DNA of 48,101 nt, from the IMG/VR virus record IMGVR_UViG_2939521961_000008; one strand, 5' to 3'. The translations under genes and the position numbers were made by a program. Below the pieces are notes generated by a model. It did not search any database and had not been told where the DNA came from. It saw nothing but the letters and a program-made list of their open reading frames with translations. This document shows, piece by piece, positions 44,404 through 45,988 of this stretch (positions within the stretch are counted from its first letter, which is position 1; every line of letters starts with the position of its first letter). The DNA comes from a virus. Its lineage: Duplodnaviria; Heunggongvirae; Uroviricota; Caudoviricetes.

Positions 44404-45717
44404 ATGGCAGTAAAGATTTCAGGTGTACTGAAAGACGGCACAGGAAAACCGGTAGAGAACTGCACCATTCAACTGAAAGCCAGACGGACCAGCAGCACGG
44501 TGGTGGTGAACACGGTGGCCTCTGAAAATCCGGATGAAGCCGGTCGTTACAGCATGGACGTTGAGTACGGTCAGTACAGCGTCATTCTGTTGGTGGAAGG
44601 ATTCCCGCCGTCACATGCCGGGACCATCACCGTGTATGAAGATTCTCAACCCGGTACGCTGAATGATTTTCTCGGTGCCATGTCGGAGGATGACGTCCGG
44701 CCGGAGGCACTGCGCCGTTTTGAACTGATGGTGGAAGAGGTGGCGCGTCACGCTGAGGAGGCGAAGAAGAATGCCGGAGAGGCGGAGACGTCAGCGAGGA
44801 ATGCCGGCATATCAGCCAGTCAGGCAGAAGAGAGCGCTGCAAATGCTGACACTTCAGCAGGGGAGGCATCGGAGTCAGCCCGGCAGGCGGCAGAAAGTGC
44901 AGCCGCTGCAAAGCAGTCAGAGGAGGCGTCCTCGTCCTCGGCCTCTGCGGCCGCTCAAAAAGCCAGTGAGTCATCACAAAGTGCAGCAGAAGCTGAATTG
45001 TCAAGAAAGACGGCAGAAAGTGCAGCCGGTAATGCAGCCAGGGATGCAACGACCGCAACAGAAAAAGCCCGGGAGTCAGCAGAAAGCGCACAGTCAGCGG
45101 AACAAAGCAGGATAGCGGCGGAAGAGGCCGTAAACCGAATCCCCACCGTGGTGGGACCTCCCGGGCCAAAGGGGGAACAGGGGCCCGCGGGTCCTCAGGG
45201 GCCGAAGGGTGATAAGGGAGAGCGCGGTGACACCGGCCCTGTCGGGGCAACCGGCGAACGGGGACCGGCAGGTGATGCTGGTCCGGCAGGCCCGCAGGGG
45301 CCGAAAGGTGACAGGGGAGAGCGGGGAGAGACCGGTCTGACGGGAAATGCAGGTCCACAGGGTCCAAAGGGAGATACCGGTGCGGCAGGCCCGGCAGGCC
45401 CACAGGGACCGAAAGGAGAAACAGGTGCGGCTGGCCCGGTGGGGGCAACCGGACCTCAGGGACCGAAGGGCGACCCGGGGGAGACACAAATCCGTTTTCG
45501 TCTGGGGCCGGCGAGCATTATTGAGACAAACAGCAATGGCTGGTTCCCGGATACAGATGGCGCACTCATCACCGGACTGACCTTTCTTGACCCCAAAGAT
45601 GCCACACAGGTTCAGGGGCTGTTTCGGCATTTGCAGGTCAGGTTTGGTGACGGGCCGTGGCAGGATGTTAAGGGGCTGGATGAAGTGGGCAGTGATACAG
45701 GCAGAACAGGAGAATGA
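44404..45717 (+). CDS. stf: side tail fibre protein (Stf N-terminal domain, Ala/Ser/Glu-rich stalk, collagen-like Gly-X-Y repeats, short C-terminal tip)
   Basis: N-terminus MAVKISGVLKDGTGKPVENCTIQLKARR matches lambda Stf; about 40 consecutive G-X-Y triplets (GPPGPKGEQGPAGPQGPKGDKGERGDTGP...). Confidence 0.85.
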   Translation: MAVKISGVLKDGTGKPVENCTIQLKARRTSSTVVVNTVASENPDEAGRYSMDVEYGQYSVILLVEGFPPSHAGTITVYEDSQPGTLNDFLGAMSEDDVRPEALRRFELMVEEVARHAEEAKKNAGEAETSARNAGISASQAEESAANADTSAGEASESARQAAESAAAAKQSEEASSSSASAAAQKASESSQSAAEAELSRKTAESAAGNAARDATTATEKARESAESAQSAEQSRIAAEEAVNRIPTVVGPPGPKGEQGPAGPQGPKGDKGERGDTGPVGATGERGPAGDAGPAGPQGPKGDRGERGETGLTGNAGPQGPKGDTGAAGPAGPQGPKGETGAAGPVGATGPQGPKGDPGETQIRFRLGPASIIETNSNGWFPDTDGALITGLTFLDPKDATQVQGLFRHLQVRFGDGPWQDVKGLDEVGSDTGRTGE

Positions 45718-45718
45718 C

Positions 45719-45988
45719 ATGAATATACTAAAAAAACTTATGCAGTGTCTGTGTGGTTGCGGAAAGCATGATGGCCGTGAACACGTGCAGTCGCCTACAG
45801 CACAGCTGCGACTGGGACCGGCAGACATTCTGGAGTCCGATGAGAATGGCATTATCCCGGAGCAGGCCAGGGTAATCACGCAGGTGGTGATACTGGATGC
45901 GGATAAAAAGCAGATACAGTGCGTGGTAAGACCGCTGCAAATTCTGCGTGCTGACGGGACGTGGGAAAATATTGGCGGAATGAAATAG
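45719..45988 (+). CDS. hypothetical protein, 89 aa, paralogous to the Stf C-terminal tip
   Basis: LRLGPADILESDENGIIPEQARVITQVVILDADKKQIQCVVRPLQILRADGTWENIGG parallels stf IRFRLGPASIIETNSNGWFPDTDGALITGLTFLDPKDATQVQGLFRHLQVRFGDGPWQDVKG. Confidence 0.5.
   Translation: MNILKKLMQCLCGCGKHDGREHVQSPTAQLRLGPADILESDENGIIPEQARVITQVVILDADKKQIQCVVRPLQILRADGTWENIGGMK

Follow-up and report, generated by a model that had tools for sequence, protein, structure and literature searches.

The collagen-like side tail fibre of an EHEC-type lambdoid prophage and the small tip-domain gene directly behind it

The side tail fibre gene (stf) of this prophage encodes a protein that ends in its own tip domain. The next gene encodes a second tip-like domain as a separate protein of 89 amino acids. 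What does a fibre with a tip of its own do with a second one? A first, sequence-only reading of the locus offered three answers: a spare receptor-binding cassette, a chaperone or a remnant of tip switching. The window analyzed here is the whole 48,101-nt stretch of IMG/VR record IMGVR_UViG_2939521961_000008.

The fibre, the small gene and the idea of a tip reservoir are all already in the literature. What is new is the comparative evidence, which makes a reservoir or a remnant unlikely and indicates that the product of the small gene is a constrained protein. These fibre modules are found on the phages by which pathogenic E. coli exchange Shiga toxin and type III effector genes. If the companion helps to build, stabilize or retarget the fibre, this matters for the host range of Stx phages and for the use of the tip domain (PfC) as a compact trimerization tag for recombinant collagens.

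The locus and the fibre

The window is a complete lambdoid prophage of EHEC-type E. coli. Positions 43700 to 46100 are 99.8% identical to prophages of O26 and O103 strains. The genes run from J through lom, stf and the small ORF to three nleG genes, with chromosomal uspF and ompN after them (Table 1). EHEC-type lambdoid prophages typically have the stf/small ORF locus at the distal end of their late operon. The first two nleG genes matched PF06416 with an E value of about 1e-46. All three are labelled "DUF1076 domain-containing protein" (NleG-type) by RefSeq in the 99.8% identical locus. The first DUF1076 gene spans 8402-8977 there, which corresponds to 46101-46676 of the window.

Table 1. Features of the stf/small ORF locus, in window coordinates
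Feature	Position	Strand	Evidence
lom (Ail/Lom outer-membrane beta-barrel moron), between J and stf	43740..44339	+	PF06316, E 1.5e-120; RefSeq annotation of 99.8% identical locus
Terminator-like hairpin and T-run in the lom/stf gap	44366..44387	+	Consensus scan; putative function
Stf, 437 aa	44404-45717	+	ORF and Pfam domains
Stf residues 1-133, PfN, lambda-type collar (anchor)	44404..44802	+	PF08400, E 3e-69 (3.3e-69)
Stf residues 134-250, Ala/Ser/Glu-rich low-complexity stalk (PCoil of EPclA)	44803..45153	+	Sequence; length
Stf residues 251-361, collagen domain, 37 uninterrupted Gly-X-Y triplets, 111 aa	45154..45486	+	Regular-expression count; PF01391
Stf residues 363-426, PfC tip/knob, 64 aa	45490..45681	+	PF06820, E 6.5e-36
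Stf acidic C-terminal tail DEVGSDTGRTGE and TGA stop	45682..45717	+	Sequence; houses the Shine-Dalgarno AGGAG of the next gene
Small ORF, 89 aa, 3' of stf	45719-45988	+	PF06820; PHROG 576
Small ORF residues 1-27, basic amphipathic N-terminal helix (MNILKKLMQxL) and variable linker with CxC string	45719..45799	+	AF2 helix at residues 3-12, low confidence
Small ORF residues 28-89 and stop, second, paralogous PfC	45800..45988	+	PF06820, E 8.9e-35
Strong hairpin with flanking A and U runs, intrinsic terminator closing the stf-small ORF unit	46000..46030	+	RNA fold, dG -23.4 kcal/mol, z -5.0
Three tandem NleG-family type III effector genes (morons), 3' of the small ORF	46035..48101	+	PF06416; DUF1076 annotation

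The fibre had been described as a lambda-type anchor, a collagen stalk and a short tip. This description holds, with PF08400, the Gly-X-Y run and PF06820 in that order. The run is uninterrupted, as had been claimed, and it contains exactly 37 triplets rather than about 40.

Residues 1-93 of Stf are approximately 91% identical to the gpStfN collar chain of Ur-lambda (PDB 9E7M/9MGH; 9E7M chain Ta). In Ur-lambda this collar domain is the point at which each trimeric side fibre joins the tail tip (PMC12617516). At this level of identity, Stf is expected to share the Ur-lambda mode of attachment to the gpV/gpM region of the tail tip. The gpStfN-like collar and the gene order J-lom-stf are those of a lambda-type side tail fibre. 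The distal parts differ: Ur-lambda Stf has a gp37-like distal domain that needs Tfa, whereas the Stf of the window has a collagen domain and a PfC knob.

PF08400, a single uninterrupted (Gly-X-Y)n run and a C-terminal PF06820 are also the features of EPclA (EHEC prophage collagen-like protein A; for example, ECs2717 of O157:H7 Sakai). Its 437 aa comprise PfN, a PCoil (about 116 aa), a collagen domain of 111 aa and, at residues 363-426, PfC. It occupies a like genomic place after J and lom, and the differences from Stf are allelic only. The low-complexity stalk of Stf is 117 aa, in agreement with the 116-aa PCoil, and the collagen domains are equal in length. Stf is an EPclA-type collagen-like side tail fibre of Shiga-toxin-type E. 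coli prophages, which is a well-known protein. A trimeric alpha-helical coiled coil has been demonstrated for the PCoil of ECs2717 only (PMC3368898).

Ghosh et al. (2012; PMC3368898) found that recombinant EPclA (rEPclA) made in BL21(DE3) forms trimeric dumbbells of about 55-60 nm. SEC-MALLS, CD and EM identified it as a homotrimer with a collagen triple helix, and the collagen part melts at 42°C (PMC3368898). The isolated PfC is a trimerization domain, and the authors concluded that it is able to re-nucleate the triple helix after heat denaturation (PMC3368898). In the window, three Stf chains would attach to the tail tip by their lambda-type collar domains. They would continue as a coiled coil and then as a collagen triple helix of 37 triplets, ending in a trimeric PfC knob.

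The small gene and its expression signals

The C-terminal part of the 89-aa protein had been said to parallel the tip, a claim that could have failed under alignment statistics. PF06820 is the sole Pfam match of the small ORF (E <= 0.1) and covers residues 28-89. The Stf tip and the small protein are identical at 24 of 62 positions (39%) by BLASTP, with an E value of 2e-12, so the similarity is significant and far beyond chance. The small ORF also matches PHROG 576 over positions 1-89 of 89 (E 2.7e-58). Residues R31, P34, I37, G44, P47, T54, L59, Q74, G80 and W82 are invariant across both paralogue classes. This suggests the same fold for both classes of PfC. With the same fold, the small protein is probably trimeric, as is the PfC of the tip.

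The N terminus had been called Cys-rich. The string LMQCLCGCGKHDG is present there, and the description is overstated. Most copies (84 of 96) have R at position 10, so that Cys10, the R10C change of the window, is a minority allele. Cys14 is replaced by H or Y in 12 of the 96 E. coli copies. Two of three Salmonella small-protein sequences (P0253, with 49 member sequences, and P0254) have LSGG at the place of the Cys motif. The pattern MxI[LF]KK[LI]xxxLxG is conserved from E. coli to Salmonella; the cysteines are not. Readings of the motif as a lipoprotein signal or as a metal-binding site both fall because the cysteines are not conserved. The lipobox Cys would be the variable Cys14, and residues 7-13 contain Q and R and form no hydrophobic h-region.

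Two AF2 monomer models of the 89-aa protein had pLDDT values of 54 and 62, which is low confidence. Foldseek searches with these models against PDB and BFVD gave no match at E < 0.1. Such uninformative results are expected of an obligate trimer with a shallow alignment. A sequence search of solved structures found none for PfC, and NCBIfam holds no model for the small protein. RefSeq names it "phage tail fiber C-terminal domain-containing protein." A literature search by locus tag returned nothing functional on the small gene.

The small gene has its own Shine-Dalgarno sequence, AGGAG at 45708-45712. It lies within the last stf codons and 6 nt before the ATG, and the gap between the stf TGA and this ATG is 1 nt. 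With this spacing, the small protein would be made together with the fibre, late in infection. The junction is the same in 76 of 83 related loci. In Salmonella, the fibre and small genes overlap, and AGGAGG is present 5' of the small-gene start. No plus-strand sigma-70-like promoter was found in 43600-46800. The two genes have the layout of a translationally coupled pair on a transcript that would be a late one. A programmed frameshift from stf into the small ORF was considered and rejected. From GAA-TGA-C-ATG at the junction, the ribosome would have to shift by +1, and tRNA re-pairing there would be poor. Within the small ORF there is an A7 run, but it is not conserved in Salmonella.

Constraint on the small gene and the question of exchange with the tip

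The selection sample was drawn with a 19-mer from the Stf tip and is therefore unbiased for the small gene. It contained 106 loci, and the small gene adjoins the tip in 105 of them. The gene is intact in 96 of the 106 copies. Its overall pN/pS of 0.19 splits into 0.08 for the PfC part and 0.35 for the N-terminal 27 codons, against 0.23 for the Stf tip in the same sample. The dN of the small protein between E. coli and Salmonella (0.30) lies below that of the tip (0.71) and above that of PfN (0.18). The small proteins are 59-63% identical, the fibre tips 31-38% and PfN 75%. These values show an old duplication and a small gene that purifying selection constrains more strongly than the tip. A receptor-binding cassette or a decaying remnant would be expected to show the reverse. 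Strong conservation of the small protein also argues against a variable receptor-binding role.

One view is that the small gene arose by an earlier tandem duplication or tip replacement and persists, as a remnant without function, through its linkage to stf. Disrupted copies make up about 9%, half of them broken at an A7 run, and the gene is non-essential in phage Sp5; both points agree with a remnant. However, synonymous sites are saturated between the paralogues, yet the frame, the start and the Shine-Dalgarno sequence of the small gene are kept. The low pN/pS of its PfC part and its identity between E. coli and Salmonella, higher than that of the fibre tips, also count against a remnant. 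Given the selection data, this reading is essentially refuted.

A second view is that the small ORF stores an alternative tip. By recombination, inversion or frameshifting, this tip would be grafted onto Stf to change the receptor. Mondal et al. (2016) proposed such a "reservoir" for tip variation for ORF68 of Sp5 (PMC5155283). The late genes that Sp5 does not need on K-12 include ORF68, whose 89-aa product is a "phage fiber C-terminus" polypeptide (PMC5155283). The same authors found no frameshift signal at ORF68 (PMC5155283), which speaks against the frameshifting route. A paralogous tip domain directly behind the fibre gene speaks for a reservoir, as does the median of approximately 10 copies per positive genome.

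The DNA of the two domains gives little to recombine. The best blastn match between the Stf-tip and small-ORF PfC was 16 nt (E 0.026), which is not significant. The longest exact word common to the paralogues was 14 nt in a comparison of 100 small-gene and 75 tip alleles. This is below the minimal pairing length for homologous recombination in E. coli, so it is too short for homologous recombination between the paralogues. Protein identity is 29-42% between the PfC classes and at least 85% within a class. No mosaic or intermediate alleles were found among 41 tip and 24 small-PfC protein variants.

Two rare chimeric ORFs exist and speak for the reservoir. In P0062, the collagen is joined to a small-type PfC by a deletion at a 13/14-nt microhomology (45258-45271 and 45811-45824 of the window). 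In P0185, the N terminus of the small protein is joined to a Stf-type PfC half. Both are singletons or near-singletons, and they are typical of decaying prophages. The small-type PfC was found in its stand-alone 89-aa form, with its own N-terminal leader, in 293 of 296 phage records. This count is from tblastn coverage in phage genomes, which replaced word-indexed protein searches because these return almost only short or partial proteins.

Switching machinery was searched for in the whole window. No homologues of an invertase, of tfa or of DUF4376 were found by tblastn. A Stf-linked serine invertase query gave a best E value of 0.066 over 32 aa. Flanking inverted repeats were limited to weak pairs of 16-26 nt with 72-88% complementarity, away from the domain borders. 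The sequence-only reading had likewise seen no invertase or shufflon signatures, and on this point it is borne out. The tip-switching systems of Mu (Gin), P1 (Cin) and e14 (Pin) resemble the locus in having an alternative tip-like coding segment 3' of the fibre gene. Unlike in those systems, there is no serine recombinase and there are no inverted repeats, and the segment lies in the same orientation with its own start codon. An invertase-type system was seen beside Stf-Tfa in mEp460_ev081.

The small gene also carries features that a DNA store would not need. Its own start, Shine-Dalgarno sequence and N-terminal helix are conserved to Salmonella, and its pN/pS is 0.08-0.19. Two suggestions of the sequence-only reading are accordingly disfavoured. 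Against both the spare cassette and the tip-switching remnant stand the lack of recombinable DNA and of mosaics, the absence of an invertase and of inverted repeats, the stand-alone form in nearly all records and a constraint stronger than that on the tip. We consider a reservoir improbable.

Possible roles of the small protein

We favour a third reading, in which the small protein is a dispensable fibre-associated accessory. It may help in the assembly or stability of PfC-tipped fibres, or it may be bound to them as a partner. We put the probability of this reading at about 0.45. It stays tentative because we infer the trimerization of the small protein, its late expression and its interaction with the fibre. 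Disruption per nucleotide, at least as high in the small gene as in stf in these mostly defective prophages, counts against it. The small gene is an ancient, selectively maintained paralogue of the Stf knob and, on this reading, neither a leftover nor a DNA store. By homology to PfC, three copies of its product would most likely assemble into a small knob with a short basic amphipathic helix at each N terminus.

The position of the gene fits this accessory reading. The small gene fills the slot that Tfa and DUF4376 assembly genes have behind fibres with other tips. In mEp460_ev081, Stf is followed by a PF02413 Tfa gene that overlaps the stf stop. In P-EibA, it is followed by a gene for a DUF4376 protein. 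Lambda Tfa (Caudo_TAP, PF02413) and the DUF4376 proteins share with the small gene the slot after the fibre gene, the coupling and the specificity for a tip type. These assembly proteins and the small protein have no sequence relationship, the small protein is half the size, and no match to the Tfa family PF02413 was found in the small ORF (Pfam, E <= 0.1). Unlike them, the small protein is a paralogue of its presumed client domain. It is also dispensable for EPclA trimerization and for Sp5 growth.

The PfC-only gene is also found immediately 3' of PfC-tipped fibre genes in 933W, phage 2B8, cdtI and Salmonella. ORF68 of Sp5 (ECs1229), gp60 of 933W and PHROG 576 correspond to the small ORF. All are PfC-only proteins of 89 aa, encoded directly behind a collagen fibre with a PfC tip. 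The small ORF and its 933W copy are 91% identical in protein and 92% in DNA. In the podovirus 933W, the collagen-PfC-small module (94% DNA identity in the tip, 92% in the small ORF) ends the essential EPclB fibre. The fibre of Sp5 and 933W is an essential podovirus fibre, whereas Stf of the window is a non-essential side fibre of a long-tailed lambdoid phage. An S. enterica lambdoid prophage encodes a collagen-free fibre of PfN, coiled coil, Pf2 repeats and PfC, followed by a 79-aa orthologue of the small protein. The conserved unit is the pair of PfC tip and PfC-only gene, whatever the stalk.

The chaperone suggested by the sequence-only reading survives in a weak, non-essential form. The slot and the translational coupling fit such a role. 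EPclA trimerized correctly from a plasmid with the stf ORF alone (PMC3368898), so a helper is not needed for folding in vitro or in BL21(DE3). With rEPclA trimers formed in this way and ORF68 non-essential, the small protein cannot be an obligatory chaperone.

A more specific form of the accessory reading is conceivable, and we consider it less likely than not. The PfC-only protein would be a new kind of tail-fibre accessory factor, a trimeric stand-alone paralogue of the tip that took the place of Tfa-type chaperones in PfC-tipped fibres. It might bind the fibre by pairing its conserved basic N-terminal helix with the acidic tail at the C terminus of Stf. Under natural conditions, the collagen helix, which is only marginally stable (Tm 42°C), might be stabilized or nucleated by it, or it might add a second conserved binding knob.

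The small gene may instead be a lysogenic-conversion gene (moron) that is expressed from the prophage and serves the host or the prophage. It might act in superinfection exclusion by receptor masking, or it might have a role linked to the neighbouring type III effectors. It sits in a moron-rich stretch between lom and the nleG genes, and effector genes were present in every examined region downstream of it. The family is limited to prophages of Escherichia, Citrobacter rodentium and Salmonella, and the gene is dispensable for phage growth. The string L-x-G-C in the small protein resembles a lipobox. The candidate lipobox cysteine, however, is the Cys14 that is replaced in 12 of the 96 E. coli copies and in two of the three Salmonella sequences, and the protein lacks a hydrophobic signal peptide. 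The gene has no promoter-like site of its own and is tightly coupled to stf. PADLOC gave no match for the small protein. The 933W copy lies in the middle of the tail gene cluster and not beside morons. We regard a moron as unlikely.

The small gene was found in 698 of 5,426 complete E. coli genomes, with a total of 6,379 copies. Its protein family is narrow, with 58 matches among 1.84 billion representative proteins, and the named homologues are from prophages of Escherichia, Citrobacter (C. rodentium) and Salmonella. A scan of genome contigs added E. albertii and a probably contaminated "Xanthomonas" contig only. Beyond this family, the representative proteins contained a few distant repeat-containing fibre proteins. 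One of them, a collagen protein of 565 aa, contains four tandem repeats, and a single one of these reaches PF06820.

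Small-ORF alleles and a stray record

The small ORF, the 89-aa PfC-only gene directly after stf, contains an A7 homopolymer at codons 4 to 6 (45730-45736). A frameshift lies right at or after this run in 5 of the 10 disrupted copies from the unbiased sample, whose loci were picked by a 19-mer from the Stf tip. Either the run is a hot spot for mutation, or these frameshifts are artefacts of sequencing. Salmonella small-ORF orthologues do not contain it.

Codon 10 of the small ORF (45746-45748) encodes Cys in the window allele and Arg in 84 of the 96 sampled copies. The N-terminus of the window's small ORF looks unusually Cys-rich because it has this minority Cys.

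One further copy, with 91% identity, is encoded on a 725-bp contig of a 'Xanthomonas pisi' assembly (NZ_JPLE01000138.1). Contamination of that assembly with E. coli or phage DNA is almost certainly the source.

Chimeric and repeat-bearing proteins

The collagen region of stf and the small ORF share a 13/14-nt microhomology, ACGGGGACCGGCAG (45258-45271) and ACTGGGACCGGCAG (45811-45824), respectively. P0062, a rare fusion protein, has its junction, between GERGPA and DILESD, at this microhomology. A second chimera, P0185, is a database singleton. It contains the N-terminus and first PfC strands of the small ORF, followed by the C-terminal half of a Stf-type PfC domain and its tail. P0185 arose by a rare illegitimate recombination or is an artefact of assembly.

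P0249 is a metagenomic, fibre-like protein of 565 aa that contains collagen. On the N-terminal side of its collagen region, it carries a tandem array of four repeats, each about 77 aa long. The Pfam match to PF06820 is one stretch (residues 238-271), and all four repeats can be aligned with PfC domains. This suggests that the PfC fold can be stacked in line along a fibre.

Antisense ORFs and neighboring genes

The G+C-rich triplet repeat gives rise, as by-products, to the two long antisense ORFs listed in the table. In the record of phage cdtI, a similar antisense ORF has been given a gene annotation (orf22).

The PF06416 scan covered the first two of the three NleG-family genes. All three carry the DUF1076 annotation in a near-identical RefSeq locus. 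In JLK-2012, in cdtI and in the Salmonella prophages, effector genes likewise lie downstream of the fibre/small-ORF module.

L208 is a Salmonella lambdoid prophage locus with the orthologous pair of fibre gene and small ORF. A SodC moron precedes J in this locus. The interval between J and stf contains a GDSL-lipase-like gene, whereas E. coli prophages have lom there.

Coordinates of the antisense ORFs and neighboring genes (window positions unless L208 is named)
Feature	Coordinates	Strand	Remarks
Long antisense ORF, 286 aa	44627-45487	minus	Spans collagen repeats
Long antisense ORF, 261 aa	45094-45879	minus	Spans collagen repeats
NleG-family type III effector genes (three, in tandem)	46035-48101		3' of terminator; PF06416 (first two); DUF1076 annotation (all three)
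SodC moron and GDSL-lipase-like gene	L208 1205-1729 and 6193-7551
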